From Endomicrobiales bacterium (GTDB lineage: Bacteria > Elusimicrobiota > Endomicrobiia > Endomicrobiales > JALOBY01), in the NCBI GenBank assembly GCA_963796955.1, contig CAWCNJ010000004.1, positions 160,001 to 224,000 on the forward strand: a DNA stretch of 64,000 nt, given 5' to 3'. Position 1 is the stretch's first letter, and each line of letters starts with the position of its first letter. Shown here one piece after another: positions 8,054-49,746 of the stretch. The notes under the pieces were generated by a model. The model made no database searches, was not told the DNA's origin, and was given only the letters and a program-made list of their open reading frames with translations. The position numbers and the translations under genes were made by a program.

Positions 8054-8351
8054 TGAAGACCCGTTTGCGGGGCGCCAGAAGCGCCTCGCCTCGGATCTTA
8101 CAGCCGGACGTTTTGTACCGCCGGTTATGGCGGACGACTGCCCCGAACTGCAACCACATTTAACCATAAACGGTCCTGTCGTACCATGCGGTTTCTCTCA
8201 AATTTACTGACTTGGAGTTTTCTGCGAGAAATTTGTCGGATCTTCAAAAATAATTATATAGATACGAAAGCATGGCATAGTTTGACTTAAACTCAATTAT
8301 TGAATATAATTGCGAAAAGAATATAGTCTTCTGTTGATCAAGGGGGGGAGT

Positions 8352-11641: not shown

Positions 11642-14152
11642 ATGGGAGCGATGCGGCGCTTTATCGTTTTGACGATAGTTGCAATGGTGTCTTACTTGGC
11701 GTGCCTTGGTGCCGCAGATGTCCCTCAAATGATGAACTTTCAAGGACAATTCTCTAGCGGGTCTATTACTCTAGATTTTTATATCTCTTCCGGCGCAACA
11801 ACCGGAATGCGGCTGCCAACAAGCAGCCCTTGGCACGAAACATTGTCTACATCAACTGCCGATGGTTATATCAGCTACCTGTTGGGCAGTCAAAGCGCGA
11901 TTCCTAAATCAATTTTCACAGATAGTTCGACGATACGATACCTTGAAATTGTAGAAAATAGCTCATCCCAATTTATGCAACTTGTCTCTGTCCCTTTTGC
12001 ATACAGGGCATCATTCTCCGACAACGCGATGTATGCTGAAAGTTTAGCAGGCGGCGCTACTATTTCAGGTGACTTAAATGTTTCTGGTTTAGTATCGATG
12101 AGTAGTGTAACAATCAATAGTGCGATTTTACGATCCGGAAGCACGGCATACGGCACAAATGCCAACACGCATATATGTCTTGGGGCCAACAGCATTACTG
12201 GAGATGTTAACAATTTCTCGTACTGTACGATCAGTGGGGGTTATGGTAACTATGCAAAAGGTGCGTATTCTTTCATTGGCGGTGGGCTAAATAACAGTGC
12301 TGGTTGTTATGGTTGGAGTGGTATAAACACTGTTATCGGTGGTGGTAGCTCGAATGTAGCAAAAGACGAATACTCGGCTATCTTAGGAGGCTGGAATAAT
12401 TCAAATGAAGGATATTGTTCGGCGATTGGTGGGGGACGAAACAACACTATAACCTATTCATCCCCGGAAAATGGCTATTACTCAACCATTCCAGGTGGCC
12501 GCGATAATGGGATAACTGGTAGTTACTGTTTTGCGGCTGGAAGGCGTGCCAAGGCTCAATCGGAAGGAGTATTCGCTTTATCAGATTCTCAAGATGCTGA
12601 TTTTGTTGTAAATTCAGACAATGTCTTTGGTTCACGCTTTAGTGGTGGCTATTGGTTTACTGGTGGGAATGTAGGTGTAGGAACAACCTCGCCTCAGTAT
12701 AAACTTCAAGTTAACGGACAATTTAGTTCAGGTAATTATTCGATATTTACATCCAGTTCGCTGGTTGGGGTAAAAGAAATTATCTTTCAGGATGGAACAA
12801 CACAAAACACTGCAAATATCCAATGGTCAGCAACTGGTAACGATATTTATCGGTCGGTAGGCAATGTTGGTATTGGTGTTCCCAATCCATCTGCGAAGTT
12901 AACCTTTGATGGTGGTTTATTGAGGTATGGAAGTTCTATGTTAGGCTCTGCGGCCAATACACATATTTGTCTTGGAATGGAAAGCACAACTGGCAGAACT
13001 ACTGGGTATAATGGGCAATACTGTACAATTACTGGTGGTTATTGTAACCAAGCAACTTCTGATTTTGCCGTTGTGGATGGTGGGCATCAAAATATAGCAT
13101 CAGGATATTCATCAAGAGTCCTTGGGGGTGAATATAATACGGCGGCTGGCGATCATTCATGCGCAATAGGAACGAAGGCTCAGGCGAACGCGCTCGGTTC
13201 CTTTGCATTAACAGATTCACAGTGGTCCTATTTTACCGTTAATTCAACTGATACATTCGGAGCAAGATTTCAGGGAGGTTATTGGTTGACCGGTGGTAAT
13301 GTTGGCATTGGGATTACCCCTAGCTCATCAACTTTAACGGTGAACGGTACAATTCTTGCAATTTCAAGTATTACCGCTGGCGCATTCGTTGGTAATGGCG
13401 CAGGGCTGACAAATCTTCCGGTTCCTGGGAATATGGTTACTGTTGATTCAATACAAACGATAACCGCGCAAAAGATATTTCAGAATTCCGTCGGGATTGG
13501 AACCGCTTCCCCAAGAACTACATTGGATGTTAATGGCGGCATAACCGCCGTCTCCAGCATCACCGCCTCCGGCGGATTCTACGGCAAAGCCTCAGGCTTG
13601 ACCGATCTACCTGTTTCTACAAATGTAGTAACAACTGACACCACTCAGAACATTTCAGGAAACAAGACCTTTACTGGAATAACTTTCGGTGTCGTGCCAA
13701 CAGGAACAGTTTTGCCTTATATAGTAAGCATATCGACGATGCCTGCGGGTTTCCTCTATTGCAACGGTCAGGTGGTTTCACGTTCGACCTACGCTACACT
13801 CTTTGCGCTTATCGGCACTGCTTTTGGTTCCGGTAACGGCAGTACTACATTTAATTTGCCTGATATGCGGGGAATGTTTCTCCGCGGAGTGGATGACGGA
13901 CGAGGATATGATTCTGAAGCTAACCGTGTAATAGGTTCTACGGAAACTGATACACTTCAAGGACATAAGCACTCAGTCCAAGCTCAAGTGGTGTCAGTAA
14001 GCAATGTTTATTTGCCCTTCACTCCTACTGCATGTCCTTTAGGAGATGGCAATACAGGTGTCCCTATATCCGATGGTATGAATGGGACCCCTCGTACATC
14101 TAAGGAAACTCGTCCACAGAACATAGCTATTGCTTATATCATCAAATACTAA
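11642..14152 (+). CDS. Secreted tail-fibre-like protein with Gly-rich GGxxN repeats and C-terminal phage tail-collar domain
   Basis: Signal peptide plus VPQMMNFQG, SVPFAYRA, repeated GNVGIGT, tail-collar motif GFLYCNGQVVSRSTYATLFALIG…FNLPDMRGMFLRG, ends ETRPQNIAIAYIIKY. Confidence 0.8.
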   Translation: MGAMRRFIVLTIVAMVSYLACLGAADVPQMMNFQGQFSSGSITLDFYISSGATTGMRLPTSSPWHETLSTSTADGYISYLLGSQSAIPKSIFTDSSTIRYLEIVENSSSQFMQLVSVPFAYRASFSDNAMYAESLAGGATISGDLNVSGLVSMSSVTINSAILRSGSTAYGTNANTHICLGANSITGDVNNFSYCTISGGYGNYAKGAYSFIGGGLNNSAGCYGWSGINTVIGGGSSNVAKDEYSAILGGWNNSNEGYCSAIGGGRNNTITYSSPENGYYSTIPGGRDNGITGSYCFAAGRRAKAQSEGVFALSDSQDADFVVNSDNVFGSRFSGGYWFTGGNVGVGTTSPQYKLQVNGQFSSGNYSIFTSSSLVGVKEIIFQDGTTQNTANIQWSATGNDIYRSVGNVGIGVPNPSAKLTFDGGLLRYGSSMLGSAANTHICLGMESTTGRTTGYNGQYCTITGGYCNQATSDFAVVDGGHQNIASGYSSRVLGGEYNTAAGDHSCAIGTKAQANALGSFALTDSQWSYFTVNSTDTFGARFQGGYWLTGGNVGIGITPSSSTLTVNGTILAISSITAGAFVGNGAGLTNLPVPGNMVTVDSIQTITAQKIFQNSVGIGTASPRTTLDVNGGITAVSSITASGGFYGKASGLTDLPVSTNVVTTDTTQNISGNKTFTGITFGVVPTGTVLPYIVSISTMPAGFLYCNGQVVSRSTYATLFALIGTAFGSGNGSTTFNLPDMRGMFLRGVDDGRGYDSEANRVIGSTETDTLQGHKHSVQAQVVSVSNVYLPFTPTACPLGDGNTGVPISDGMNGTPRTSKETRPQNIAIAYIIKY

Positions 14153-14879: not shown

Positions 14880-15275
14880 ATGAAAACACGGTTCGCGATG
14901 AAAATGATGCTGTTGACGATCGGCCTGCTGCTGAACAGCTGGGGCGCCCCCCGTTTCACGGCCCAGCTCACGCAGCCGCTTGTTGTCAGCGTCACCAATT
15001 ACCCGAACCCGTTCGACAGCCGCTGCGAGAGGACCACCATCCTGCTCTCGCTGGCGCAGGAATCGCAGGTAAGCATTTCCATCTACGATCTGCTGGGTAA
15101 CATGGTGCGGCAGTTCCCTTCGATGAGCGAGGATGCCGGCACCACCAGCATTGTCTGGGATGGGACGAACGATGACAAGGAGAAAGTGGCAAAAGGCGGA
15201 TATCTGGTGCTGGTCGTGGCCAATAGTGAGGCCGGTACATCCCAGGTAATACGAAAGGTCGGCGTTTTGCATTAG
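14880..15275 (+). CDS. Signal peptide plus stand-alone FlgD-Ig/T9SS type A-like sorting domain
   Basis: NYPNPF…IYDLLG…WDGTND…VAKGGY…RKVGVLH; GGAG RBS. Confidence 0.8.
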   Translation: MKTRFAMKMMLLTIGLLLNSWGAPRFTAQLTQPLVVSVTNYPNPFDSRCERTTILLSLAQESQVSISIYDLLGNMVRQFPSMSEDAGTTSIVWDGTNDDKEKVAKGGYLVLVVANSEAGTSQVIRKVGVLH

Positions 15276-15285
15276 TGACAAAAAA

Positions 15286-16923
15286 ATGAAAAAGAAACTG
15301 GCAACCACCAATCTCATAGCGATCTTCAAGTCTCTGGCCTGCTGCGCCAAAGCGCTTGTGGTGGTTTGCGTTGTTCTCTTCGGACTTCTGATTTCGGACT
15401 CTGGACTGGTGTATGCCGACAACACCGGCGGCCAGGCTGGCCAGTTCCTTGCCTGGGGCGCCGGAGCCCGTTCTCTGGGGATGGGCGCGGCCTTCTTCGC
15501 TGTAGCTAATGACGCATCGGCAACATACTGGAACCCCGCCGGGCTGCCGCAGCTGGACCGCAAGGAGCTTATGGCGCTGCACGTAACGTTGTTCGCCGAT
15601 ACGACCTACGATTTTATTTCTTACGTACATCCGACGCCGAACCTGGGCGTTTTCGGTATAAACCTGACCCGTTTATATTCCACGGGATTTGAAAAAGTTA
15701 ACATCACGTTTGATTCCACAAAGACCGACATCGTCGACATTCAAAGCATGGGAACATTTGATGATTCCCAGACCGCCCTTACCCTGGCGTACGGCAAGAA
15801 TATCCGCGACGGCATTGCGATCGGCGGTTCGTTCAAGTATATAACCCACACGCTGGATACCTCAACGAACGGATTCGCTACCTTCGACGTAACATCGCTG
15901 GTGACCGGCGTAACTTCGGCGCTGCCGGACATGAAGATGGCCTTCGGCATAAACAACATCATGAGCAGCGCTTTCGGCGACACGGAAGACAAACTGCCGA
16001 TGATACTTCGCGCAGGCATTTCGCAGCCGTTCCTGAAGAACAAGCTGCTGCTTGCGGCCGATATGAACAAAGGCATGAGCTCGGACATGGAGTGGCACCT
16101 GGGCACCGAATACTGGCTGCTGAATTTCGCAGCATTGCGCGTGGGCTTTAAAGGCCAGCAGGGCATCAGCGAAACAACGGCCGGATTCGGTCTGAGATAC
16201 CGCGATTACGGATTTGACTATTCTTTCGGGCTGACGGATCTGGGTATGTCGCAGCGGGTGAGCGGTTCCTGGCGCTTCGGCCTCTCCGTGAACCAGAACA
16301 AGGAAGCCCTGGTTCGCCGCTACATTCAGGAAGGCATGGAAGCATACACCAAGGGTAATTTCCTTCTTGCGCTGAATCGCATGGAAGCGGCTCTTGACAT
16401 AGACCCGTCCAACAAGGACGTCCAGAAAATGTCTAAACGTCTGCAGATGGTCATAGGCTTTATACCGTCCGCCAAAGCTGAGAACGAGGAAGAGACGGCT
16501 ATCCGCAAGGGTGTGGCCGCCTTCACCGAGAACGATGACAAGGGCGCCATAAACGCCTTGCGCTACGCCTATTACAAGAACCCCGCGAACCTGAAAGTGC
16601 TGCACCTGTTGAACGCTATGGAAAAAGAAATGGGTATCAGTATCACACCGGTATATAAGGAAGAGGCGGCCGGCTTTACCATGCTGGATCAGAAAATTTA
16701 TGATGCGCGCCAGGCTATTATTGAAGGTAAATATGATCAGGCGCTGATCAAGTGCCAGGATATAATGAACCTGGAGCCGGAAAACGTGACCGCACTTGAA
16801 ATGATGGGTTCTGCCTTCTTCATGATGGACCAGCCGGAAAAGGCGAAGCAGGTATGGATGAAAGTGCTTGAGATAGATCCGTCGAACAAGGTGGTACCTG
16901 AGTTCCTTAATCAGTTGAAGTAA
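15286..16923 (+). CDS. PorV/PorQ-family beta-barrel fused to C-terminal TPR domains
   Basis: GAGARSLGMG…ATYWNPAGL, DYSFGLTDLGMSQRVSGSWRF, then TPRs (ALDIDPSN, LEPENVTA, LEIDPSN). Confidence 0.82.
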   Translation: MKKKLATTNLIAIFKSLACCAKALVVVCVVLFGLLISDSGLVYADNTGGQAGQFLAWGAGARSLGMGAAFFAVANDASATYWNPAGLPQLDRKELMALHVTLFADTTYDFISYVHPTPNLGVFGINLTRLYSTGFEKVNITFDSTKTDIVDIQSMGTFDDSQTALTLAYGKNIRDGIAIGGSFKYITHTLDTSTNGFATFDVTSLVTGVTSALPDMKMAFGINNIMSSAFGDTEDKLPMILRAGISQPFLKNKLLLAADMNKGMSSDMEWHLGTEYWLLNFAALRVGFKGQQGISETTAGFGLRYRDYGFDYSFGLTDLGMSQRVSGSWRFGLSVNQNKEALVRRYIQEGMEAYTKGNFLLALNRMEAALDIDPSNKDVQKMSKRLQMVIGFIPSAKAENEEETAIRKGVAAFTENDDKGAINALRYAYYKNPANLKVLHLLNAMEKEMGISITPVYKEEAAGFTMLDQKIYDARQAIIEGKYDQALIKCQDIMNLEPENVTALEMMGSAFFMMDQPEKAKQVWMKVLEIDPSNKVVPEFLNQLK

Positions 16924-17073
16924 AATATAAGAGTATCTAAAAGGATCTGGTTTAAAAAGATGCAACAGCTTACAAAAGTTTTTAAACAAAACACGCTGAA
17001 AAGCCCGACACTCTGTGAAAAAACAGGGAGCCGGCTTTTCATTGCCTTATACCATATTCAACAGGAGCTCATT

Positions 17074-18843
17074 ATGAAATTGGTCGCGCGGGCGCTGTTC
17101 TTCTGTCTGCTGGTGCTGATGCCGGCCTTTGCCGCATCCACCGACAACAGCGGCGGGGGTAAGACCGCCGAGATTTCATTGCTTGAACAGGAATCAAAAT
17201 TTGAGAAAGACAAGTCGGACTATCTTCAGCAGAACGTGGTAGACAAGATACTGGGGCCCGGCAACGCCGTGGTGATCGTTGACGTGGAGCTGGGCATAGA
17301 GACCAAAGTTACGAACCAGGGCGCGAAAGAGAAAAAAACCGAGCGCAAGAAGCGCCTCGGTGAAGTGGAATATCTGCTGCCCGGCGTGCCGAACCCGAAG
17401 TCTGTCGCGAACGAATCCCAGCCGGGCGAATCGAAAGAAGAGACGGGAGCCGCGGAAGAAACGAAAACAGAATCAAAAACGGTCATAAAGAAGCTGCAGG
17501 TAACGGTGCTTTACGATGAAAAAATAGTCCAGGAGAAACTGGATACCGTTAAAGAAGCTATTATAAATTTCCTTAAGCTGGACCCGAAGCGCGGCGACAA
17601 GATAGAGTTCAAGAAAACAAAATTCACCAGCGGATTCTTCGAAGAAATGATGAAGCCGCTGATACTGATTCCTCTTATCATAGCGCTGCTGGTATTGTTC
17701 TTTCTGTTCGGGCCGTTGGCCAGTTTTTTCCGCAATTATGTGCGTACGCTTGCTGAACACGGCGGAACAGAAGTTACCGTCGACTCAAAATTTGAAGGTG
17801 ATAAGGGCGATGAGGAAGGAGCCGGTGGCGCAGGCGGCGGTGGCGTGGGAGAAGGCATTCTCGGCGAAGGCGACGGTAAGAAATATATACCTTTTGAATA
17901 TATAAACGATGACAATCTGAAAAGGCTTGTCTATCTGGTAAAGCGCGAGCCGCCTGAAACGATATCGCTGGTGGTCAGCTACCTGAAGCCCGAGTACGTT
18001 AAGGAACTGCTGAACGCCCTGACACCGGAACTGCAGGCGAAGGTGGCCACCGAAATGGCGACGATCCGCTCGCTGGACATGGATGATGTTCAGAAAGTGG
18101 ATAACTACATAAAGGAAAAGATAGAGTTCCTTATCGGCGGATTGTATCACCTGCTTAACGTGCTTGATAAAGTAGACCCGATCACGCAGTCCAATATATT
18201 CGAATACCTTAAGAATGAAAAACCGGACCTGTATGAAATGGTGCGGAAATTCGTGCTGATGTTCGACGATATACCCAATTTCCCGGACCAGGCGATGCAG
18301 GTGATAATCCGCGAGCTTAAGACCCAGGATATGGCGAAAGCACTGCGCAACGCCGAGCCCGAGATCATGAACAAATTCCTTGCCAATATGTCGACGAACG
18401 CTTCCGCCATTTTAAAAGAAGAAATGGAGTACGGCAGGCCCCTTACCGATGCCGAGGTTGAGGAAGGCCGCAAACAGCTGATGGATGTGGTAAAGAAGCT
18501 GGAGGCGGAGAACAAAATATTCCTGCGCGAAAAGCCGAAGTCCGGCGTGCTGGAAGGCCTGGAGGCCGGTAGCAACGATAACACCAGCTACAACGAATAT
18601 TATCAGGCAGGCGTGGGTTCTTATGAAGCGGGGGAGTACGACGCGGCCTTGCCTTACCTTGAATACTGCACACAGCTGGATCCTACACAGCCGGCGGGCT
18701 TTCAATATCTGGGCGCTGCATATTACGCGCTTGGGCGTACCGCCGAAGCGGTAGCAGCGTACGAAAAAGTGGTTGAGCTGGACCCGACCAACGAAGAACT
18801 AAAAAACTGGCTTGCTTCGCAGAGCGCCAATAAACTCGCATAA
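17074..18843 (+). CDS. FliF-C-like ring domain - TM - FliG middle and C-terminal domains - TPR fusion protein
   Basis: AGGAG RBS before ATG 17074. FliF-like VDKILGPGNAVVIVDVEL…IKKLQVTVL…LDPKRGDKI; TM helix; FliG-M PFEYI…EPPETISLVVSYL; FliG-C MFDDI…FLANMS…ILKEEM…VEEGRKQL; terminal TPRs. Confidence 0.8.
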   Translation: MKLVARALFFCLLVLMPAFAASTDNSGGGKTAEISLLEQESKFEKDKSDYLQQNVVDKILGPGNAVVIVDVELGIETKVTNQGAKEKKTERKKRLGEVEYLLPGVPNPKSVANESQPGESKEETGAAEETKTESKTVIKKLQVTVLYDEKIVQEKLDTVKEAIINFLKLDPKRGDKIEFKKTKFTSGFFEEMMKPLILIPLIIALLVLFFLFGPLASFFRNYVRTLAEHGGTEVTVDSKFEGDKGDEEGAGGAGGGGVGEGILGEGDGKKYIPFEYINDDNLKRLVYLVKREPPETISLVVSYLKPEYVKELLNALTPELQAKVATEMATIRSLDMDDVQKVDNYIKEKIEFLIGGLYHLLNVLDKVDPITQSNIFEYLKNEKPDLYEMVRKFVLMFDDIPNFPDQAMQVIIRELKTQDMAKALRNAEPEIMNKFLANMSTNASAILKEEMEYGRPLTDAEVEEGRKQLMDVVKKLEAENKIFLREKPKSGVLEGLEAGSNDNTSYNEYYQAGVGSYEAGEYDAALPYLEYCTQLDPTQPAGFQYLGAAYYALGRTAEAVAAYEKVVELDPTNEELKNWLASQSANKLA

Positions 18844-18866
18844 AAGTTACTTTGGGAGACCAAAAA

Positions 18867-21800
18867 ATGGACATCTTTAAAAACAAAAAACCGGCTGAAG
18901 GGACCAACCCCCAGGTGGAGACGCCACGGATGGCAGAGCCCCAGCCGCCAACCGCGCAGCCGCCCGTTCCGGTGATTTCCGACAGCCAGGCTATGGCCGA
19001 GGCCAGGGCCCGCGCGCGTGAACAGTTGAACCTTATGGAGCAAAAGATCGCTCAGGAGCGCGAAGCCTGGTCGCATAAAGTCAAGGAAAAGGCCGAAGAG
19101 CAGGTTTCCTGCAACGCGAAGCTGGATATGCTGGTAAATCGTATCGCTCTTGAACGCGAGCGCCATGAAGCGGAGCTTGTCCTTATGCAGCAGAGCATCG
19201 ACAACGATCTTAAGTCTATCGACGCGGCGCTGGAAGCTGAGACCGCAAAATGGACGGAGCGCCTTTCGTTGAAGGATAAGGATATTGAAGATGCCAGGCA
19301 CCGCTCGGCCTTTGAAGAGACCCAGAAGAAAATAGAGTCTGAACAATCCCTGCGCGCTCTTAAAGTTGAAAAAGACGCGCTGGAACAAAAATTCAAAAGC
19401 CTGCAGCGCTCCATGCTGGAAGAACAAAATAAGTGGCTCGGCCAGATACGGCTGAAAGAAGAAGAGATCGTAAACCTTAAAACACAGATCGCGTTGCACG
19501 AAGAACAGATGAAAACCGACGAAGAAAAGAACACGTTGACCAGGAAGGAGTCGGAAGAAAACTGGCATACGCAGATAAAGGAGCTGGAGGAGCGCCTGGA
19601 TACCCAGCGCACCGACTGGACCCGCGTGCTCGCGAAAAAAGAAGAAGAGCTTTCAGCCATCAAAACAACGCTGGAGCAAAAACTTTCCACCCTTGCGATA
19701 GAGACCGAGCGCAAAGAGAACGATATCCGCCTTCTCAAGACCCGCATGGAAGAACGCATCAAGGCCGCCGAAGAATCCCTGAACGGAGAGAACGCGCGCT
19801 GGCAGCAGCTGCTGGGAGAACGCGATGAGGAGTTTAAAAAACTGCGCGTGGAGCTGATGCTGCGCGACAGTCAGGAAAAAACCGAACGCCAGAAAAAATA
19901 TCAGGACCTTAAAGACGCCGAATCCACCGCCTCCCGCCGGATCCGCGAGGCGAAACAAAAACTGGAAGATGAAAAACAGGTCTGGCAAAAGCGTATAAAC
20001 GATAAAGATGAAGAGCTGAAGAACCTCAAGATCCAGGCCGAGCTTAAGCTGAAAGATATCCAGGACGACCGGGCACTCCGGCAGCGCCGCGCTGAGGAAG
20101 AAAAATCAGCGCTCTCAGCCACGCTCGCAAGCTTGCAGGAAAAACTTGAAGAAGAACGCGTTACTCTGCAAAAAAGCGTTGCGGAAAAAGACGCGGAGAT
20201 AGAAACCTGCCAGCAGCAGTGGCAAAATACGCACGATGCGATGACCCGGGAAGGCGAAGCTCACATCAAAGAGCTGCGGGCGCAAAAAGACAGTTATGAA
20301 AGAGAAGTGCTTGCCCTGGAAGCCCAGCTGGCCCAGGAAAAACAGAAATGGAATACATTGATTCAGGAAAAGGACAAGCAGCTCTCTGTCGCGCGCGCCG
20401 AATATAACGCCAGAGAAGCGCTGGTGCACCAGGAACTGAATATACTGGAAGAACAGTTGCGCAAAGAGCAGCAGCCGCTGCTGCGACAGGTGCACGATAT
20501 TGAAGGAAAAGTAGGGGAATTGCAGCGCGCCGCCCAGATAGAGATATCGCACCGCGAGACCCAGAAAAAATCGTTACAGGATCAATTTCAACGCCGCGAA
20601 GAGAATCTGCGCCAGCGCCTGAATATTCAAATAGAGAAGATCAAGGATTCGGAAAATTCTCTCGCGGGCCGTGTTGCCGAAATAAAGGCGCATATGGACG
20701 CGCAGGGAAAAGAGGCGCAGTCAAGGCTTGAGGCTCTCGAAGAAGAAGGACGTCTGATCTCCGGACAGATGTCGCAGGAACATGAGCGGATAGAGGCTGA
20801 GAAAGCCAAGTTGTCTGAAAAATATTTGTCTGCCAAACTGGAACTTGAAGAGAGTATTAAAAAACTGGAAAACGAATACGACCTGATGCATACGACCTTG
20901 CAAGCTGAAATAGAGGAAAAGACCTCGGAACTTGCCGGCGAAGAGACCCGTCTGCACGCTGCCGAAGAAAGGATCGCAAAAGAAACAGCACAGCGCGAAA
21001 AAGAGTTCGCGGACCTTAAGGCCCGCGGCGACAGCCAGCTGGCGCAGCTGAGCGGCGAACTGGAAGCGCTTAAGAAACGCAATGACACCGATATACGTTC
21101 CCAGGTCGCCCAGCTGGAACTGCTGCGGCGCCAGGGCGCGGCGCGTGAGCAGGAGATGGCGGCGGATATAGAGGTCATCAGGCAGAACTCCGAGTCGGAA
21201 TTGAAACCCATGGCGGACCGCAAGGAGCAGCTGCGCTCACAGCTGGATTCCCTGCGCGCGCAGTCACAGACGAAACTGAAAGCCATCGACGGGCGCATTA
21301 GCGCGCTTCGGGCGCAGCATGACGCTATCGAAAAAGAATTCCTGGGCAGAAAGAACGTCGTCACGGAATCAATAAACGGTGTACAACGTGACAGTGAAGG
21401 AAAACTCCGCGCGCTTCAAAACGAACGCACGGAGCTGGAAGCTGCGTTTGCCCGCGAAATGTTGTTGAAGGAAGAAGAATTCTCAGCTCTCGAAAAAGAA
21501 GTGAACGGGCATGTGCAATTATTACAGCAAAAGAAGGATGCGGAGCGCGAAGAAGCCCGTATGCAGATGGAAAGCATGCGCGCCGACATAGACAAACTGT
21601 ATGAAGAAGTCTCGCGGGTTGAGACGGAATACCCGGAAATACTGGCCACGCGCCAGGAAGAACTGGTTTCTCTTGAAAAACAGGTCAATGAACGCGCGCA
21701 ATATTATCAGAAACAAACCCTTCAGGCGGAAAAATCGCTTGAGAATTATCAGCGTCGGGCCGAAAGCCGCATAGAGACCGTCCGGACGCAGCTGGACCAG

Positions 21801-23753
21801 ATGGTGGCGCGCCATAAGACAGAACTGTCCGTGCTGGAAGCGAAAATAACGGCGGTAAAGAAACAAACGGAAGAAAAAGAGAAGGCGCTCAACGACGAAC
21901 AGAACCGCGAAGGCCGCGTCTTCGTGGATGAAAAATACCGTCTGGAAAAACAGAAGGCCGAGCTGGAAGAAAAATTGAAAGATGTGACCTTCACTTCACG
22001 CGATCAGATAGGGAAAAAGGAAAAAGAGATCTCCGCCCTGCAGCTGGACCTGGCCGCCAAAGAACGCCTGTGGGAAGAGGCATGGCAGAAGAAGGAAATG
22101 GAGTTGGAAGCCGAGCGCGTCGTGCTGACCAGGGAGCAGGAAAGCCTTGAAGTCCGCCTGAAGAACGAGGAACAGATCTCTTCCAGCCGTCTGGCCCAGA
22201 AAGAGAACGAGATACATCAATATATGGCGCAGGCGGAGACACGGCTTAAGGCCCTTGAAGCCGACATCGAAGCTAAACGCGGCGCCTGGGACGAATCTAA
22301 AAAAGCGCTGGTAGAACAAATAACCGCCCATGAAGCGACGCTTGCGACACTGCAGCAGAATTGGCGCGAGAGCATGGCACGCAAGGACAAAGAACATACC
22401 GCGTTGAAGTCCAACCTCGAGTTCTGGGAACTGCGCACCAAGACCGAAGAAGAAAAACGCATGGCGGACTGGGAGAAGGAAAAATTCTCCCTGGAAGAGA
22501 AAGTAAAACACGTTACGGAGCAGATCTCTTCGCTGCAGTACGATTCAGCGGCCAAACTGGCCGAACGTGAAAAACAGCTTAACTCCGACAAAGAATCGGC
22601 ACGGCTGGCGGAGGAATCATCCGCCGCGCAGTGGCGTGAGACCGAGACGATGCTGAGCGGCCAGCGCGATTCCCTGATGCAGGAAGTTTCATCGTGGGAA
22701 AAGAAGATCAAGGACGAGACCGCGCAATATGAAAAGGAAAGCCGGGAGCTGGACAAGGATATTGAAAAACTGAAGCTGGAAAGCGCCCTGAAAGATGCCG
22801 GCATCCAGGCGAGTCGCCACAAACTTGAACGCGACTGGTTCAAGGCGCTGCGCCGGCTGGAAGGGCAGCTGGAGACCGTGAGCCGCCGTTACATCGAAGA
22901 AAAAGATTCCTGGACGGGTAAGATCCACCTGATCGAGGAAGAGATAAATACCTTCAAGGTGCGTCTTGGCATGCGCGAAGACCGCCGCCAGGCCGAGATC
23001 ACACGGCGCCAGGATGAACTGCGCAAGATAATCAACGAACTGGAGAACGAAGTGAAGGGTATGTACGCCAGATACAGCGACGCGGTGCTCGGCAAGAAGG
23101 AGTGGGTGACCAAGCGCAGCCAGCAGCTGGCAGAGCTTCGTGCCCAGCTGGCCGAGAAAGAAACCGTATGGCAGCGCGAGCAGTCGGCGAAAGAAGCTTC
23201 GCTGACCGGTGTCTTCGAGCAGTTCGGCTCCGATCTGTCGGACATGGAAAAGTCGCTGAAGGAAGAAACCGGTAAATTCGAAAAGCTGCTGGGACTGAAA
23301 CAGAAACAATTACAGAATATTATGGCGCAGATGGCCGGCAAGGAAGAGGAGCTGGTGCGCGAGCGTGAATTCAGTCAGAACACCTTAAGCAAATTGCATA
23401 CGAAAGCCGCGGAATTCAAGCAGCAGATAGAAGCTGAGTTGCGGGCTTTGTCGGCGGGCAAACAGGAACAGCGCTCCCATGTGCATATTTTTGACGAGGC
23501 GATGGAGCTGTACTCTCAACAGAACTTTGGCGCCGCCCTTGAACGGCTGGAAGCCCTGGTGAGCCAGCATCCGCGTTTCCCCGGCGCCCTGCAATATATG
23601 GCGCTGTGCAGCTTCGAACAGGGAAAACTTGCCGAGGCGGTGCAGTTCGCCGAACGGGCCTTCGAGCTCGACGGCAGCAATGAGTCTCTCAAGGAATGGA
23701 TACTACAACTCAAACAAGCGGCACGTTCACATATATCAGATTCTAATAATTAA
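18867..23753 (+). CDS. Giant coiled-coil protein with 61-residue periodicity and C-terminal TPR
   Basis: E/K/Q/R/L-rich ORF of ~1630 aa, Pro-rich N-terminus, Trp codons every 183 nt, terminal TPR (AFELDGSNESLKEW). Confidence 0.85.
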   Translation: MDIFKNKKPAEGTNPQVETPRMAEPQPPTAQPPVPVISDSQAMAEARARAREQLNLMEQKIAQEREAWSHKVKEKAEEQVSCNAKLDMLVNRIALERERHEAELVLMQQSIDNDLKSIDAALEAETAKWTERLSLKDKDIEDARHRSAFEETQKKIESEQSLRALKVEKDALEQKFKSLQRSMLEEQNKWLGQIRLKEEEIVNLKTQIALHEEQMKTDEEKNTLTRKESEENWHTQIKELEERLDTQRTDWTRVLAKKEEELSAIKTTLEQKLSTLAIETERKENDIRLLKTRMEERIKAAEESLNGENARWQQLLGERDEEFKKLRVELMLRDSQEKTERQKKYQDLKDAESTASRRIREAKQKLEDEKQVWQKRINDKDEELKNLKIQAELKLKDIQDDRALRQRRAEEEKSALSATLASLQEKLEEERVTLQKSVAEKDAEIETCQQQWQNTHDAMTREGEAHIKELRAQKDSYEREVLALEAQLAQEKQKWNTLIQEKDKQLSVARAEYNAREALVHQELNILEEQLRKEQQPLLRQVHDIEGKVGELQRAAQIEISHRETQKKSLQDQFQRREENLRQRLNIQIEKIKDSENSLAGRVAEIKAHMDAQGKEAQSRLEALEEEGRLISGQMSQEHERIEAEKAKLSEKYLSAKLELEESIKKLENEYDLMHTTLQAEIEEKTSELAGEETRLHAAEERIAKETAQREKEFADLKARGDSQLAQLSGELEALKKRNDTDIRSQVAQLELLRRQGAAREQEMAADIEVIRQNSESELKPMADRKEQLRSQLDSLRAQSQTKLKAIDGRISALRAQHDAIEKEFLGRKNVVTESINGVQRDSEGKLRALQNERTELEAAFAREMLLKEEEFSALEKEVNGHVQLLQQKKDAEREEARMQMESMRADIDKLYEEVSRVETEYPEILATRQEELVSLEKQVNERAQYYQKQTLQAEKSLENYQRRAESRIETVRTQLDQMVARHKTELSVLEAKITAVKKQTEEKEKALNDEQNREGRVFVDEKYRLEKQKAELEEKLKDVTFTSRDQIGKKEKEISALQLDLAAKERLWEEAWQKKEMELEAERVVLTREQESLEVRLKNEEQISSSRLAQKENEIHQYMAQAETRLKALEADIEAKRGAWDESKKALVEQITAHEATLATLQQNWRESMARKDKEHTALKSNLEFWELRTKTEEEKRMADWEKEKFSLEEKVKHVTEQISSLQYDSAAKLAEREKQLNSDKESARLAEESSAAQWRETETMLSGQRDSLMQEVSSWEKKIKDETAQYEKESRELDKDIEKLKLESALKDAGIQASRHKLERDWFKALRRLEGQLETVSRRYIEEKDSWTGKIHLIEEEINTFKVRLGMREDRRQAEITRRQDELRKIINELENEVKGMYARYSDAVLGKKEWVTKRSQQLAELRAQLAEKETVWQREQSAKEASLTGVFEQFGSDLSDMEKSLKEETGKFEKLLGLKQKQLQNIMAQMAGKEEELVREREFSQNTLSKLHTKAAEFKQQIEAELRALSAGKQEQRSHVHIFDEAMELYSQQNFGAALERLEALVSQHPRFPGALQYMALCSFEQGKLAEAVQFAERAFELDGSNESLKEWILQLKQAARSHISDSNN

Positions 23754-23775: not shown

Positions 23776-26700
23776 ATGGCCGACGAAAAGTTACCAAAAG
23801 TTCCACCGTTACCGCCCGCAAGACCAGCCGGGAGCGGACCAACCCCGCCGAAGCCGCCTATGCCGGGGGCCGGTGCCAACCCGCCCGCGGTGAAACCGGC
23901 GTTGCCGGGTAAGCCCGCGATAAATCCGGCGGCGGCGCCGCGCCCTATGCCCGGGCAGGCGGCTCGTCCTCCTGTGAACACCCAAACCCAGCGAAACGTA
24001 ACGCCGGCCCAGCCGTCCACCGGCTATTCTGAGGTTGACGATGCCCGCAACGCGCTGGAAGGCCAGATAAACGAACTGCAAAAACAACTGCAGTCCGAAC
24101 GCGAGAAGCTGCTGCTGCAGACCGTGCGCGCAAAGAAGAAGAAGCGATGTCGGCCAAAGTTGAAGAATCGATCAAGGATATTCAGGAACGTGTCCGCCGG
24201 GAAAAACGCGATCAGGAATTGCAGGAATCGCTGGCGAAGGCCGAAGCGTACAATAAAGAGATGGAGGCGCGCCTTGCCGCCGAGCGCCAGACCTGGGTGG
24301 AGACCCTTAAAACGCAGATCGGCCAGAAAGATTCGCAGGAAAAAGAAGTGGAATACCAGTTCGAGCTGCGCATGAAGGAGCTGGAACGCCGCTGGCATGA
24401 GGAAAAACTCGCCTGGTCGCAGGCCATCAAAGCGAAAGACGAAGAGGTGATACGTCTGCACCGTGAAAAAGAGAGCGCGGTAGGCGAAGAGCGCGCAGCT
24501 TCCGAGAAACGGGTAACCGAACTTACCCGGGAACGCGAGTCCCTGCAGCGTGAGCTGATCGATGTACGCGATGTACGCCAGGAAGAGCGCAGCTCGCTTC
24601 TGGAAAAACTTGAGGGCCGCGATAAGGAGTTCATGGGCCTGAAGGCCCAGCAGGCGATGCTGGTGACCCAGGTGCGCGAAGCTAAAGACAAACAGGACCA
24701 GATGCGCCAGCTGCTGGAAAAATTCCGCGCTGAAAAAGAGAACCTGCATTCGCTGCTGGAAAATAAGGATAAAGAGTTCTACCTGTTCAAAACGCAGTTC
24801 GCCCTCTACCAGACCCGCTCAAAATCGGAGCAGGAAAAGCTGCTTAAGGAACTGGTATTGTTCAAAGATCAGATGGGCAAGGACGCGCAGCAATATTCCA
24901 GCGTCCTGCGCGCCAAAGAAGAAGAGATGAACCTGCTGCGTCGCGCTAACGAAGGCAGGGAAAGCGAGATCCGTAACCAGTTGGAAAAGAAAGAACAGGA
25001 AGTCGCCTCAACGGCGGCGCAATACGAGGCTCGCATAAAAACGCGCGAAGCCGAACTGCGTTACGAACTGGAACGCAAGGAAACGGAACTTAAAGGTCAG
25101 ATAGTCCATATTGAAGAACAGGTCAGAGCGCGCGTCGGTGAAATTGAGAACCTGAAAGAACGTCATACCGAGCAGCTGCGCGCCAGGGACGGCGATATAA
25201 AGAGCGCGGCGGAAAAACTGGCGGCTATGCAGGTGGAAGTTGCCGTTGCCAGACAAAATACACAGTCCGCCGAACAGCGTATGGCGCTTGCACAATCAGA
25301 GGCTGCCAGGCTCAAGGAGATCATAGAAGAAAAAGAAGTTGACGCGGCTTCCGCACAGGCACAGTTCACCGCCCGCCTTGAGCAGGCTGCTTCCGAAGTG
25401 CGTCAGGCGACCGAACGCGAACAGGCGCTGCGCCTTGAGCTGGCTGTCGCCCGGCAGAACATGCAGGTTTTTGAAACCCGCATAGCAGCGGCGCAGTCGG
25501 AAGTTGCCGGGCTTAAAGAAGTGATCGCGAGAAAAGACGCTGAAGCTTCTGAGCGCCAATCGGAGTTCAGCTCACGCCTGGAGCAGGCGGCATCGCAGCT
25601 GCGCTCCGTGCAGGAACGGGAGCAGACGCTGAAAGTAGAACTGGCTTCTGCGGCCGCCGTGCGCCATGATCTTGAAAAAGCGGTGGAGAGAGAACACGAG
25701 GAAGCGGAGCGCCAAAAAGCTCAGATCGTTGAAAATGAAAATCTTTACCGGAACGGCTTATCCCAGAAAGATACGGTCATCAGCGCCAAAGAACTTGAAC
25801 TTGCCGGCATGCGTGAAACAATAGCGGCTCTTCGTATGGAACTGGTTAAAAACGAAAGTATGCAGCGCGAGCTTACCGTGGCGAATGACCGTCTTGACGT
25901 GGCATTATCCCAGGCAAACGCGGCCTTAAGCGATCGCGATATGCGCCTCGCCAGGGCCGGCGACAGGGAGAAGGGCCTTGCTGATACTATCAACGAACAT
26001 GTCAATGAATTGTCCGCTGTCCGCGCAAGCCTTGCCGCGGTTGAAAATGAAGCGGCCGCGTTGCGCGGCGCGATAACCGAACGGGACGGCCGGATAAAGG
26101 AAGGCGACCGCAAGGAAGACGAACTGCGCGCTCAACTCCTTTCGAAAGAAGGTGAGATCAACACCCTGCGCGAGACGATGCAGCAGCGCGAGGCGATGCT
26201 GGTGACGGTGCAGACCCAGGCCGAACGCCGCGAGAACGACATGAAGATCGCCTTCGCCCAGCGTGATGCCGAACTGAACAACCGCTGCGCGGCCCTTGAG
26301 GCGACGCTGGTTGAGAAAGACCGTTTCCTCGCCGGTTCCGCCGAAAAAGAACGCGCCTTATCGAACGCCCTGGCGAAAGAAGAGGAAAAAGTTTCCGAGC
26401 AGCTGGAACACGTGAGGGAACTTGTTTCAAGAGAGAACGAGCTCAAGATGTCTCTTAACCAGAAAGAGAACGCGTATGCCGCTGAACGCGCCGCGATAGA
26501 ATCGCGCATAGCGGAGCGCGACCGCCAGCTTACCCAGCAGGCGCAGGCGTTTGAGGCTGAGCGCAGAAAATACGAAGAAGCCGTCTCACGGGCGGAACGT
26601 TCATTGCAGGAAGCTTCAGCGGCCGCTCAGCTGCAGCTTGCCTCCCGTGAAAAAGAGATCGAACGCCTTAACAGCGCGGTAGCGGCCGCCCAGCATGCGG

Positions 26701-27848
26701 TCAATGCCGCCAAACAGGAAAACGCCCTGCATGAGCAGGAATTGCAGCTGGGCGCAAAACAGCGCGAAGCCGCTCTGCTTATTGATATAACCAACGCCCG
26801 GGAAAAAGCTAAGAAGGCCGAGCAGGTCCTCAGCGATTCTCAGCGTCAGCACCAGCATCTGCTGCTGTCACAGGAACAGAACGCGATGCAGCGCGAGGCG
26901 GCGTTGAGCGCGGAAAAGAACGCGGCAAAAGAGCTTCTGGCCGGCCTGAAAGCCGATAACGATACCCTGCGGCGCGAAGGCGAAAAAATGCTCGCCGAAG
27001 TGAACGCCAGTCAGCATCGCATGAACGAGGTAAAGGAATTATACGAGCGGCAGCTGAGAGCCAAGGAAGAAGATCTGGCCCAAATTAAGGCGAACAGGCT
27101 GGCGTTCGAAGACTCTGTGCGCCACCAGATCAATGAAGAATACCGCCGGCATCTGGAAGGGGTGCAGAGGGAAAAGCAGGACGGCGAACGCGCCTTCATG
27201 AACCAGATACAGACCCTGAGGGACACCATGCGTACCGACCTGCTGCACGTGCAGGAAACCATGACCCGCGACCACTCGCAGCTGGAACGCCAGCTGCAGG
27301 AAAAAGAGGCCCGGCTGCACGAACTCCAGCAGGCTTTAAAAGACGAAGCATTACGCGAGCAGGAACAGAAAACCGCCCTGGACAAGAATGTTGAGAGGGT
27401 GCGGGAAGAATACAAGGCATTGCTTGCAGAAGAAACAAGAAAACATGAAATGGAGCGCGATGTAATAGCGCGCAATACCAAGCATATAGACGATGAGTGT
27501 TCTTCGCTGCGCCAGAGAGCAGAGGGGCTAGCCTTTCAATTAAAACAGGCGAATGATACCCTGCAGGGGAAAAATAAGGAAGTCATGACCCTTCAGGAAA
27601 ATCTTGACACCCTGACCATTCAAAACAGGAAGCAGGCACAGTATTCTTCTAACGATGCCGCCGCGAAAACGGCTAAATTCGGCCCGGAAGACACCGTTAT
27701 ACTTGAGCCGCATGTTCCCCAGCCGCAGATCCAGCAGCCGGCGCCAGCAAAGCAGCGTAAACCGCTGATAGGCCGTATCTGGGATAATTTGAACGAACCC
27801 GTCATAGAGATCGGCGGAGATAACATGAAGAAGAAAGACCATGAATAA
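23776..27848 (+). CDS. Large coiled-coil protein with Pro-rich N-terminus (~1357 aa once the frameshift at ~24132 is corrected)
   Basis: GGAGG RBS before 23776. One missing A in gcaaagaa joins ORF 23776.. to ORF 24147..27848 (…VRAKEEEAMSAKVEE…). Confidence 0.8.
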
Positions 27849-28509
27849 CGAACTGCATAAGCTTAGAGAAAAATGGGAAGCGTCTTTCAGCGCTCTGGAA
27901 TGCACGGCGCGCGGTGCCGGCAGCAGCGATGCTTTCCGCAACAATGAATTCGCATTGCTGCGCGAGGAGGTGGGCGCGCTCAAGGCTGAACTGGTGGAAG
28001 CCAGGCGTGAGCGGGAAGCGTCCCGGTACGCGGACACCCGCGCGAGTGAGCTGGAAAACGCCATACGCCTGCAAACGCTGGACAACGAGAATAACAGGCG
28101 TGCTCTGGAAGAACTGTGCCGGAGCCGCGTTCAGGAAGAAAACCTTTCCGTCCAGGCGGCGGAAAAGGCGGCGAAAACGATCGCCGGTGAAAAAGAACGT
28201 GCCGAAAGCCTTGCCGAAGAATTGTTCTTTGCACGTGCCGAAAATGAGGCGTTACGGCAGCGTGTCGCGGCCGCCGATGCAGCCGCGTGCGATGCCCGCG
28301 CCGCAGCCGTGGAACGCGAGAAGTCATTTTCCGGCCTGCTTGAGCGGCTTAACCGCGCCGAATCAGAGTGTGAGCGCATCTCACAGAATTTTATCCAATA
28401 CCGGATGGAAATAATCACCCGCGGCAACAAAGAAGAACGCCATCGCCGCCATAGCGAGCCGGTCCTGGGTGAGAAGATCATATCCTGGCTGTCCAACAAA
28501 GAGCGTTAA
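27841..28509 (+). CDS. Coiled-coil hypothetical protein
   Basis: 222-aa heptad-rich ORF overlapping the upstream stop. Confidence 0.7.
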   Translation: MNNELHKLREKWEASFSALECTARGAGSSDAFRNNEFALLREEVGALKAELVEARREREASRYADTRASELENAIRLQTLDNENNRRALEELCRSRVQEENLSVQAAEKAAKTIAGEKERAESLAEELFFARAENEALRQRVAAADAAACDARAAAVEREKSFSGLLERLNRAESECERISQNFIQYRMEIITRGNKEERHRRHSEPVLGEKIISWLSNKER

Positions 28510-44039: not shown

Positions 44040-44093
44040 AAAATGGGCTCGCACCCAAGCATCGTCAAACTCGAGGCTGTGTTGTTGTAAATG

Positions 44094-45741: not shown

Positions 45742-45742
45742 G

Positions 45743-46729: not shown

Positions 46730-46730
46730 G

Positions 46731-48529: not shown

Positions 48530-48716
48530 ATTACTTAAATCCCCGTGATGGCGGTTGTCACAGGGGAATCGGGCTTCCCCTCCGGGGACTTGGTCGCTGT
48601 CGTGCCTATGCGGCACGCCATGACGCTCGGTCGCCGCCCATCCGAATATCCAGTTTCGCTGGCCAAACAATGCAATTTCTTCACCCGACACCCCTGCGCC
48701 AACCTTGGTTTGGGTG

Positions 48717-49706: not shown

Positions 49707-49746
49707 ACCGTCCCTCCGGTTTTTACTTATATGCATTCTGTGCTTT

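Follow-up and report, generated by a model that had tools for sequence, protein, structure and literature searches.

What would a bacterium in whose genome no flagellar export gate was found do with a single protein that joins a ring-building part of FliF to the torque part of FliG? The question is raised by gene C (17074..18843, + strand, 589 amino acids (aa)), which lies in a 64,000-nucleotide stretch of the genome of an Endomicrobiales bacterium (assembly GCA_963796955.1, contig CAWCNJ010000004.1, positions 160,001 to 224,000), hereafter called the window. We found that its product consists of the FliF ring-building motif 3 (RBM3) and collar in the periplasm, one transmembrane helix, and cytoplasmic FliG-M and FliG-C domains. 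The family of this fusion co-occurs with stators of the MotB(plug) type, with an operon common to both in most lineages, and the genomes holding it mostly lack the flagellar export gate. It is fairly probable that gene C encodes the rotor subunit of an envelope machine of Elusimicrobiota that is independent of the flagellum and is driven by flagellar-type MotA/MotB. All features described below lie on the + strand unless indicated otherwise.

Domain architecture and fold of gene C

The open reading frame at 16960..18843 is open throughout, and its frame is intact. As the start, the ATG at 17074 was favoured, as it is preceded by an AGGAG 7-11 nucleotides (nt) upstream, and the ATG at 16960 has no such site. 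Because of this AGGAG and the signal-peptide-like N-terminus that begins at ATG 17074, gene C was taken as 17074-18843. This N-terminus, residues 1-20 (MKLVARALFFCLLVLMPAFAAS, 17074..17133), has a basic n-region, a hydrophobic core, and an AFA-A site, and we regard it, judging the sequence by eye, as a putative signal peptide. It is followed by a periplasmic RBM3 and beta-collar domain (residues 31-182, 17164..17619), assigned by AlphaFold2 (AF2) models and fold searches, and by a transmembrane helix at about residues 196-219 (17659..17730), a hydrophobic stretch within the AF2 helix 195-229. Next come a disordered Gly/acidic linker (residues 232-267, 17767..17874), where the predicted local distance difference test score (pLDDT) was <50, the FliG middle domain (residues 284-351, 17923..18126; Pfam FliG_M 3.2e-13 and the 1lkv alignment), and the FliG C-terminal, or torque, domain (residues 378-484, 18205..18525; Pfam FliG_C 2.7e-27, fold Z 15.5 and 15.8). 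The protein ends in a cytoplasmic module of two tetratricopeptide repeats (TPRs; residues 504-588, 18583..18837), matched by Pfam TPR_2, TPR_1, and TPR_19 and modelled with a pLDDT >90. An earlier interpretation of this DNA, the sequence-only reading, had proposed a natural FliF-C::FliG-MC::TPR fusion without FliG-N, arranged as signal or transmembrane segment, FliF-like segment, transmembrane segment, Gly-rich acidic linker, FliG-M, FliG-C, and TPR; Pfam, AF2, and the fold searches bore out this architecture, and the parts were found in the order claimed.

In the Pfam analysis, YscJ_FliF_C matched residues 57-184 (E 2.4e-5, 25.2 bits, cut-off 23.8), FliG_M and FliG_C gave 50.2 and 95.6 bits, both over the cut-off, and TPR matches covered residues 510-580. 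The two paralogues from the same genome had higher YscJ_FliF_C scores than gene C, 40.6 and 39.8 bits. No match to YscJ_FliF (RBM1 and RBM2) was found in gene C, and the periplasmic part fits a single domain. For FliG_N, the sole match in gene C had 19.5 bits (cut-off 25) and fell at residues 298-343, within FliG_M. The linker occupies the place of the FliF C-tail and FliG-N: the C-terminal FliF tail that binds FliG-N is replaced by the Gly/acidic stretch, which runs straight into FliG-M, and the AF2 model placed just 45-50 disordered residues between the transmembrane helix and FliG-M. In this helix, L211 and P214 were invariant among 45 aligned homologues. The NCBIfam FliG equivalog TIGR00207 scored 114.1 bits on gene C, below its cut-off of 226.7.

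The AF2 model of the whole protein, built with 45 homologues, had a mean pLDDT of 77.5, with the helices of the FliG part at 279-478 and those of the TPRs at 504-588. When this model was compared with the PDB using Foldseek, FliG accounted for the first 13 matches (best 1lkv, E 3.4e-12, 30% identity), and these were followed by FliF MS-ring entries at about 3e-4 and then by TPR proteins. In structural alignments, the FliG parts of gene C gave Z values of 15-18. The FliG-C part superposed on Thermotoga 1qc7_B with Z 15.8 and a root-mean-square deviation (rmsd) of 1.2 Å over 89 residues, and on 8ucs_H, a FliG-C bound to MotAB, with Z 15.5 and an rmsd of 1.2 Å over 88 residues. As modelled, the torque domain essentially matches the fold of FliG-C bound to MotAB. 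The TPR module matched TPR structures at Z ~14. An MgtE-like regulator was considered as an alternative identity and rejected: MgtE_N reached 30.1 bits (7e-7) at residues 400-453, inside the 95.6-bit FliG_C match, and no CBS or MgtE domain was present. The sequence-only reading had itself named MgtE-N or another fold as a possible better match for the cytoplasmic part, and FliG fitted far better than MgtE-N.

Since FliG and TPR matches crowded the list obtained with the whole model, the periplasmic domain was folded alone with 74 sequences (pLDDT 71.3). The AF2 unit runs as helix, long strand, loop, long strand, helix, and strand, and the long strands at 65-82 and 129-148 with the intervening loop make up the RBM3/beta-collar topology. 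Alignment of this model to 48,161 PDB chains with VIA-align put the FliF RBM3/collar first, which supports the proposal that the periplasmic part folds as a ring-building motif. The top matches were the FliF chains 8z5v_A (Z 12.8), 6scn_A (Z 11.8), and 8z4d_1 (Z 11.2), the last superposing with an rmsd of 1.8 Å over 98 residues within FliF residues 255-452; the next entries below FliF were all ring-building motifs, from PrgK (7.7), SpoIIIAG (7.4), and EscJ (7.2). Foldseek on the periplasmic model alone returned FliF in all of the first 18 matches (8e-7 to 1e-5). A profile search of the PDB with this domain found SpoIIIAG at 6.6e-4 and FliF at 0.005-0.07, and a single-sequence search of the PDB with the periplasmic part gave nothing relevant.

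Distribution of the fusion and its stators

A search of 5.8 billion proteins gave 191 relatives at E <=1e-3. The best 120 of these 191 showed 34-100% identity over 52-100% of the query, and were mostly ~600 aa long, with 11 shorter than 550 aa; the named ones belonged to Elusimicrobia or Endomicrobia and were annotated as 'FliG C-terminal domain-containing', 'tetratricopeptide repeat protein', or 'flagellar motor switch protein FliG'. The mean column identity was 44% over the 45 aligned homologues. With one genome per species, 193 genomic stretches encode a relative, and our locus counts refer to the best 80 of these 193, nearly all assigned to Elusimicrobia, Elusimicrobiota, or Endomicrobia, plus one from Ignavibacteria and four designated just 'bacterium'. 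A mis-assembly of separate fliF and fliG genes was rejected, as the same fusion was present in 80/80 independent loci.

The phyletic distribution was analysed in 201 Elusimicrobiota genomes, all of them metagenome-assembled genomes (MAGs); these relatives are not independent of each other, and the counts are therefore read as a pattern rather than a statistic. FliG_C was found in 71/201 genomes, FHIPEP (FlhA) in 5/201, and MotB_plug in 77/201. MotB_plug was present in 70 of the 71 genomes with FliG_C, and FHIPEP was missing from 66 of the 71. Seven genomes had MotB_plug without FliG_C, and at most three of these fell below the family cut-off, which 74 of the 77 pass. The two large families of the phylum had FliG_C in only 1/122 genomes, and the other families in 69/78. 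The FliG_C frames were mostly 470-710 aa long, as against 335-356 aa for the canonical protein, and there were two to six fusion copies per genome. Distances were taken from the matches listed, 150 of 167 for FliG_C and 150 of 228 for MotB_plug. Among these, a MotB_plug gene lay <=12 kb downstream on the same strand of 30/68 FliG_C frames of >=600 aa and 38/72 frames of 381-599 aa (14 of them with two MotB), and of 0/6 frames of canonical length.

In most lineages, the stator genes belong to the same gene cluster. The window proteins were compared by tblastn with the 80 loci (E <=1e-5; contig ends make the counts lower bounds), and the same-strand order was gene A in at least 36, gene B in at least 68, gene C in 80, a coiled coil like that of gene E in at least 61, MotA in at least 49, and MotB in at least 44. 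In one such locus, L080, the operon encodes a PorV-TPR protein (530 aa), the FliF-FliG-TPR fusion (641 aa), a coiled coil (927 aa), MotA (265 aa), a MotB with MotB_plug and OmpA domains (212 aa), and a 235-aa protein without an assigned family; a sub-group of loci, for instance L042, has just FliF-FliG-TPR, MotA, and MotB. The MotA of L080 matched Clostridium sporogenes MotA 6ysf at 2.9e-51 and Vibrio PomA at 1.6e-45, and is therefore a flagellar-type stator subunit, not one of the TolQ/ExbB type. The NCBIfam MotA/PomA models matched MotA at 1e-60, below the equivalog cut-offs. The suggestion of the sequence-only reading that the ring engages a different stator was not supported, as the fusion shares an operon with flagellar-type MotA and MotB (plug, OmpA) in most of the phylum.

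The genome to which the window belongs, hereafter the source genome, comprises 11 contigs with 2.1 Mb in all, is estimated to be 81% complete, and has three FliG_C frames and two MotA_ExbB loci. At this completeness, FHIPEP, YscJ_FliF, FliMN_C, and Flagellin_N were not found in it, and the controls were positive in four or five flagellates. In G064, one of the five flagellated genomes of the sample, canonical flgB, flgC, a 525-aa fliF, and a 334-aa fliG are present together with two fusion operons: one encodes FliF-FliG-TPR (647 aa), MotA, and MotB, and the other a PorV-like protein, a 402-aa protein, FliF-FliG (494 aa), MotA, MotB, and a further MotB. In the canonical FliG of G064, EHPQ and the arginine are retained, and this protein shares 26% identity with the FliG part of gene C. 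This last part is ~30% identical to Thermotoga FliG and 30% to a short paralogue from its own genome.

These data bear on the idea that gene C is what is left, decaying and functionless, of a lost flagellum. In favour of it, other flagellar genes are missing from the source genome, 5/201 members of the phylum are flagellated, and according to PMC12199754, where remnants are discussed, 11% of non-motile species have rotor proteins but no filament genes. Even so, we hold this explanation to be very improbable, because the frame is intact, members throughout the phylum are 34-91% identical and none of the domains is without invariant columns, each genome has two to six copies, and the operon order is conserved. 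In addition, in G064 the fusion coexists with a canonical fliF-fliG cluster, and it has an invariant loop motif of its own, described below, that is missing from the canonical FliF of that genome.

Residues of the torque helix were placed using the HMMER alignment of gene C to Thermotoga FliG 1lkv (E 8.5e-34). The helix NMSTNASAILKEEMEYGRPLT (residues 438-458, 18385..18447) aligned with Thermotoga NMSKRAAALLKDELEYMGPVR: the arginine of 'SKR' corresponds to N442, the arginine of 'GPVR' to T458, and K-D-E to K448-E449-E450. The same result had been reached by the manual alignment of the sequence-only reading, with the acidic pair kept as EE and both arginines lost. We take N442, E449/E450, and T458 to be the equivalents of E. 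coli R281, D288/D289, and R297, from the enteric motif quoted in that reading. Among the 45 aligned homologues, position 442 was G in 27, N in 15, and S in three, and basic in none; position 448 was K in 39, R in four, and Q in two; E449 was invariant (45/45); position 450 was E in 38, S in five, and another residue in two; and position 458 was T in 31, S in 10, and another residue in four. In the related loci, the first-arginine position was G, N, or S in 80/80, and the changes at the torque helix are family-wide. The tetrapeptide EPPE, which had been read as the form in this protein of EHPQ, the FliM-docking motif of FliG-M, was confirmed at 292-295 by the 1lkv alignment; E292 was conserved in 44/45 and P294 in 41/45 homologues, and the H and Q positions vary.

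The stator side of this interface was analysed in 48 MotA sequences, 46 encoded downstream of TPR-type fusions and two from the source genome. The residue aligned with PomA R88 was K in 36 and R in 12, that is, basic in 48/48, and the one aligned with PomA E96 was Q in 37 and E in 11. PomA R88 and E96 presumably correspond to E. coli MotA R90 and E98. According to PMC12505986, MotA R90 pairs with FliG D288/D289, and MotA E98 with FliG R281. By this alignment-based comparison, the charge pair that is lost on the FliG side (R281) is mostly lost on the MotA side as well, and the pair involving E449 is kept on both sides. Such a matched pattern is what jointly constrained partners would show.

In the source genome, two FliF-FliG paralogues were found beyond gene C, on contigs 6 and 7. 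On contig 6, a CHU_C-tailed protein, a PorP/SprF-like barrel with a TPR, three ABC-transporter genes, and a TolB-like PD40+fn3 protein precede a 505-aa FliF-FliG without TPR, which is followed by MotA, MotB, a second MotB, and a glycosyltransferase. Contig 7 encodes a 1011-aa FlgD_ig-tailed protein, a PorV barrel with a TPR, a PD40+fn3 protein, and a 546-aa FliF-FliG. At both loci, the PD40+fn3 protein has a signal peptide, and its gene (L088 7596-9167; L087 5489-7381) overlaps the beginning of the short FliF-FliG gene, which suggests translational coupling. A word-based homologue search with the short paralogue gave 8 matches only, too few for taxonomy. Contig 3 carries an orphan MotA-MotB-MotB' operon (L089 8622-13511), followed by genes for an HTH-receiver protein, a receiver-GAF-histidine kinase, and a single receiver domain, which may control stator supply. 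The two MotAs of this genome are sisters with 51% identity, and share 35-40% identity with the MotAs linked to TPR fusions, outside whose clade they fall; the two MotA-MotB-MotB' operons, one of them the orphan, are candidate stators for gene C. A partner of the TolQR/ExbBD type was rejected, as the source genome (81% complete) has only two MotA_ExbB-family loci, both MotA-type. The paralogue search suggested by the sequence-only reading thus succeeded for MotA, whose loci are present, and failed for TolQ/ExbB, of which no paralogue was found in this genome. With only MotA-type loci and no TolQ/ExbB there, the short FliF-FliG systems might therefore do a Tol-like job.

In the lineage of the window, the genes next to gene C differ: MotA and MotB were found within 10 kb in none of the 15 closest loci (L006-L020, 42-62% identity), nor in the window, and L006-L020 carry a second giant coiled-coil gene like gene D (1633 aa). 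Here a non-rotating scaffold, the other option raised by the sequence-only reading, has to be weighed, in which a ring or single copies of gene C anchor giant coiled coils via the TPRs and the armadillo repeats of the FliG-like part. The lack of motAB in the cluster at all 15 loci, with gene D in its stead, would fit it, as would the loss of both torque-helix arginines, the similar terminal TPR module of the B, C, and D proteins, and the fact that a cognate-type MotA was not found in the source genome. Yet the window's clade keeps N-M-S, K448, E449, M451, and Y453 of the torque helix as the stator-linked clades do, the modelled FliG-C superposes on its stator-bound counterpart at 1.2 Å, the source genome has kept two complete stator operons, one of them an orphan, and 70/71 genomes with the family have MotB_plug. 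We consider a scaffold unlikely for this lineage.

Gene neighbourhood and the outer membrane

Gene C is the third of nine + strand genes that run in series from gene A to a gene at 33724-35808, with gaps of -8 to ~150 nt; promoter-like sites were found in the 730-bp gap upstream of A. For 14880-19800, the sequencing runs comprised one DNA run, listed with a small share, and no RNA run. Gene A (14880..15275) encodes a 131-aa secreted protein that consists of little beyond a type-A C-terminal sorting domain (CTD) of the type IX secretion system (T9SS), as indicated by Pfam FlgD_ig (6.4e-11) and Por_Secre_tail (2.3e-5) and by NCBIfam TIGR04183 (29.6 bits, cut-off 23); a relative lies upstream of the PorV-like gene in at least 36/80 loci. 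Gene B (15286..16923) encodes an outer-membrane barrel of the PorV/PorQ family (~50-336) with a C-terminal TPR region (~340-545), matching NCBIfam NF033709 with 125.2 bits (cut-off 90) and Pfam UPF0164 and TPR. It lies directly upstream of the FliF-FliG gene in at least 68/80 loci, and the mean column identity of 34 homologues was 52%.

These two neighbours raise the possibility of a type-IX-like motor, in which the ring turns against the PorV/TPR barrel and moves or releases CTD-bearing surface proteins for gliding, as a conveyor, or in secretion, with MotAB and the FliF-FliG ring replacing GldLM/PorLM of Bacteroidota. This would be a sharper form of the rotor reading, not its opposite. It agrees with the identities of A, a bare type-A sorting domain, and of B, which exceeds the NCBIfam PorV/PorQ cut-off and so often precedes C. 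Moreover, each of the three FliF-FliG loci of the source genome encodes a protein that ends in a CTD, together with a TPR-tailed barrel of PorV- or PorP-like type, which points to the handling of surface proteins; the window holds more cargo/barrel pairs, at 8310-9811 and 28530-33709; and contig 8 (L090 1443-6905) carries a Sov/SprA-like frame of 1820 aa (TIGR04189 E 2.4e-46). This frame is nonetheless below the cut-offs, with 157.7 against 200 bits for TIGR04189 and 24.4 against 27 for Pfam SprA_N. The PorV family, in turn, was present in 182/201 genomes, including 58/58 of family f19 and 45/64 of family f2, but FliG_C was found in 0/58 and 1/64 of these, so that CTD sorting is independent of the fusion. 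It follows that the fusion is not a general engine of CTD sorting, and that the outer-membrane link is not specific at the family level. GldL, GldM, and GldN were not found in the source genome (81% complete; GldM 14.6 bits only), a result that is uninformative, as the control genomes were equally silent (TIGR03513, TIGR03523). The complex predicted for the TPR arm of B (335-545) with C residues 25-192 had a score of 0.13 against a mark of 0.32, and bears neither for nor against a contact between B and C. Overall, the type-IX-like form of the rotor is a possibility to which we give clearly less than even chances, ahead of the scaffold.

A candidate site for such a link is the proline motif YLLPGVPNPKSV (residues 100-111, 17371..17406), which lies inside the collar loop. 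The consensus is (Y/F)-x-L-P-G-(V/I)-P-x-P, and the loop around it is variable, charged, and predicted to be disordered. P103 and P106 were invariant, and G104 and P108 at least 90% conserved, among the 45 homologues. Both paralogues have the motif as well: in a domain alignment of 74 sequences that includes them, P83 and P86 (alignment numbering) were invariant. PGxP occurs nowhere in the canonical FliF of the flagellated relative G064. Conserved as it is and placed where the ring collar has its tip, this linear motif resembles a docking site. Peptides of this kind are bound by TPR domains, and our hypothesis is that the motif docks to the periplasmic TPR arm of barrel B. A similar two-repeat TPR module ends B, C, and D (16663-16920, 18556-18840, and 23454-23750); that of C shares 33% identity with that of D (E 2e-15) and 28% with that of B (E 3e-11). 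The copy of B should be periplasmic, and those of C and D cytoplasmic.

Downstream, gene D (18852..23753) encodes a coiled coil of 1633 aa without a signal peptide, Pro-rich at its N-terminus and ending in a TPR; at least 20/80 loci, mainly of the window's clade, have a relative downstream of the FliF-FliG gene. Gene E (23776..27848) encodes a protein that is Pro-rich at the N-terminus and has a conserved segment (~100-150 aa) and a long coiled coil; it is read in two overlapping frames, at 23776-24375 and 24147-27848. Its first 100-150 residues from ATG 24147 are conserved downstream of FliF-FliG in at least 61/80 loci. The Pro-rich frame runs into out-of-frame Arg/Lys-rich junk where the coiled-coil frame opens, near the AAGAAGAAGAAG run at 24133-24144, and the counterpart in L080 is one continuous gene of 927 aa; the split in gene E is probably an assembly frameshift or a real one. 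Gene F (27841..28509), whose start overlaps the end of E, encodes a 222-aa coiled coil, for which there was no family match and no relative in the 80 loci at E <=1e-5. The array continues with an fn3/CHU_C protein of 1202 aa with a type-B tail (28530-32138) and a PorP/SprF-like barrel with LysM (32135-33709). The last gene of the same-strand array (33724-35808) encodes a 694-aa coiled-coil/TM (transmembrane)/propeller protein, with an N-terminal coiled coil of ~300 aa, a predicted transmembrane segment at about residue 480, and a C-terminal beta-propeller (weak SGL match).

Elsewhere in the window, the pair at 8310-9811 encodes a protein with a type-A CTD and, after it, a barrel of the PorV/PorQ family (151.6 bits), and type-IX-like gene pairs here lie outside Bacteroidota. 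A frame of >2079 aa at 2-6241, running off the window start, had no Pfam match, and the gene at 11642-14152 encodes an 836-aa repeat protein with a phage tail collar domain at its end (E 2.4e-21). On the - strand, 41422-49757 holds an operon of the BatA-BatD/MoxR type, with an AAA_3 ATPase, DUF58, a BatD-like protein, two VWA/BatA proteins, a TPR protein, BatD, and a TPR-SH3 protein.

A proposed rotary machine and its relation to known systems

If gene C is a rotor subunit, its copies would assemble via RBM3 into a ring, as those of SpoIIIAG and of FliF (about 33-35 subunits) do, and the covalent FliF-FliG link would remove the need for a joint between the FliF tail and FliG-N. The single transmembrane helix and the flexible linker would set a crown of FliG-MC beneath the membrane, where wall-anchored MotA5B2 units, MotA pentamers with MotB as the anchor, would push the torque helix and turn the ring via a reduced charge interface. 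The contact kept in this interface would be that of FliG K448/E449 with the conserved K/R at the MotA R90-equivalent, and the FliG R281-MotA E98 pair would have been abandoned by both partners. The cytoplasmic TPR pair may sit at the place of FliM/FliN and probably holds the coiled-coil protein E and, in the window's clade, D as well; that the TPRs replace FliM/FliN docking, as the sequence-only reading had it, is plausible: FliMN_C was not found in the source genome (81% complete), and of EHPQ only E and P are conserved. In the periplasm, the LPGxPxP loop at the collar tip is the likely output or adaptor site, perhaps toward the TPR arm of B, and would pass the movement on.

Several points weigh against this proposal. 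We infer ring formation, rotation, and every protein contact in it. The window has no stator gene, nor does any of the 15 loci of its clade have one within 10 kb, and the MotAs of the source genome fall outside the clade of TPR-fusion MotAs. Both arginines of the flagellar torque interface are gone, and 11 MotAs keep the glutamate though their FliF-FliG partners have no arginine. The short paralogue of contig 6, which adjoins MotA, reads K-Q-M at the acidic positions, and charge pairing is therefore not the whole story. The PorV family is spread over 182/201 genomes, the fusion-free families f19 and f2 included. Finally, all the genomes are MAGs, and the source genome is only 81% complete.

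Should the rotor proposal be right, a phylum that mostly lacks flagella would have put the rotary motor to a new use, in a conserved system with several copies per genome of which just the torque-generating core is left: ring-building domain, torque domain, and stator. This bears on the old question of whether the rotor-stator module had an origin independent of the type III export apparatus. With FliF and FliG in one chain, gene C would be a natural minimal rotor and a simple object for structures of stator-rotor coupling, because just one of the two classical charge pairs remains. Such a machine could also explain movement or surface remodelling in non-flagellated Elusimicrobiota, including the magnetosome-bearing ones reported in a preprint (10.1101/2022.07.08.499144). 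A bolder view, which we think improbable, is that flagellar-type stators here drive a machine of a third kind, in which FliF-FliG fusions form a rotary ring that stands by itself, reaches the outer membrane via the proline-loop collar and the PorV/TPR barrel, and moves or delivers surface proteins in gliding or as a conveyor. Its rotor-stator core may be inherited from one that is at least as old as the flagellum, which would show that torque can be generated in the absence of the type III export apparatus. An ancient core is possible because the FliG part of gene C is no closer to the canonical FliG of its phylum (26%) than to that of Thermotoga (30%).

Among known systems, the flagellar rotor-stator core is the nearest. 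Gene C resembles it in the RBM3/collar (Z 11-13 to Vibrio and Salmonella FliF), in the FliG part (30% identity to Thermotoga, 1.2 Å to stator-bound FliG-C), in the operon with MotA and MotB in most relatives, and in the retained acidic residue of the torque helix and basic residue of MotA. It differs in being one chain instead of two, without RBM1/RBM2, FliG-N, and the FliF C-tail; EHPQ is reduced to E-x-P-x, the arginines are lost, and the MotA glutamate is mostly glutamine. A TPR tail, the invariant LPGxPxP loop, and PorV-barrel and coiled-coil neighbours are further differences, and no genes for the export gate, FliM/FliN, rod, hook, or filament were found in the source genome, at 81% completeness.

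Single-chain versions of FliF and FliG have been seen before. As described in Bergeron 2016 (PMC4768692), Chlamydiaceae have a natural FliF-FliG fusion of ~330 aa in bacteria not thought to be flagellated. It is likewise a single chain with a signal sequence, a shortened periplasmic ring-building part, and a FliG-like cytoplasmic end, but this description gives it RBM2 and one RBM-like stretch, no SpoIIIAG-like domain (RBM3), and FliG-M-like sequence only. Compared by description only, gene C is the converse of the chlamydial protein, with RBM3 only, FliG-M and FliG-C, TPRs, and a link to MotAB. The engineered Vibrio FliF-FliG fusion that served for cryo-EM of the MS-ring (8z4d/8z4g, 945 residues) matches gene C in both its FliF and FliG parts. 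Such constructs resemble gene C in that a covalent FliF-FliG link is compatible with ring assembly, and differ in having full-length FliF and full-length FliG within a complete flagellum. Salmonella FliF-FliG fusion mutants, too, reportedly still assemble rotors.

The T9SS and gliding machinery of Bacteroidota shares with this system a motor of the MotAB/ExbBD superfamily, PorV/PorP barrels, and CTD-tagged surface proteins, and PorV-family, PorP/SprF-like, and type A/B CTD proteins were seen in the source genome, as was a SprA-like frame that scores below the cut-offs. Unlike it, the present system has MotAB and a FliG-bearing ring in place of GldL5M2 with its periplasmic GldM arm, GldK/N-type ring genes were not identified here, by a search whose controls were silent, and PorV-family genes also occur in relatives without the fusion. 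The SpoIIIAG ring of the sporulation channel resembles gene C in a ring-building motif whose beta insertion builds a large ring, and was the best sequence-profile match (6.6e-4; Z 7.4), but it has no FliG part and no stator, and is structurally less similar to gene C than the FliF RBM3.

What was known before is that most free-living Elusimicrobiota without flagellar structural genes hold homologues of motAB, flbD, and fliG, whose role is called 'unclear' or 'enigmatic' in the available part of 10.1101/2022.07.08.499144; that part describes neither the fusion nor the operon. Main-text literature searches gave no description of this fusion architecture or operon, and the main text of the mBio 2025 MotAB survey has no 'Elusimicrob' and a single 'FliG', on E. 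coli stator-rotor contacts. What is new here is probably the re-use of the flagellar rotor-stator core outside the flagellum, in the form of a FliF-FliG fusion.

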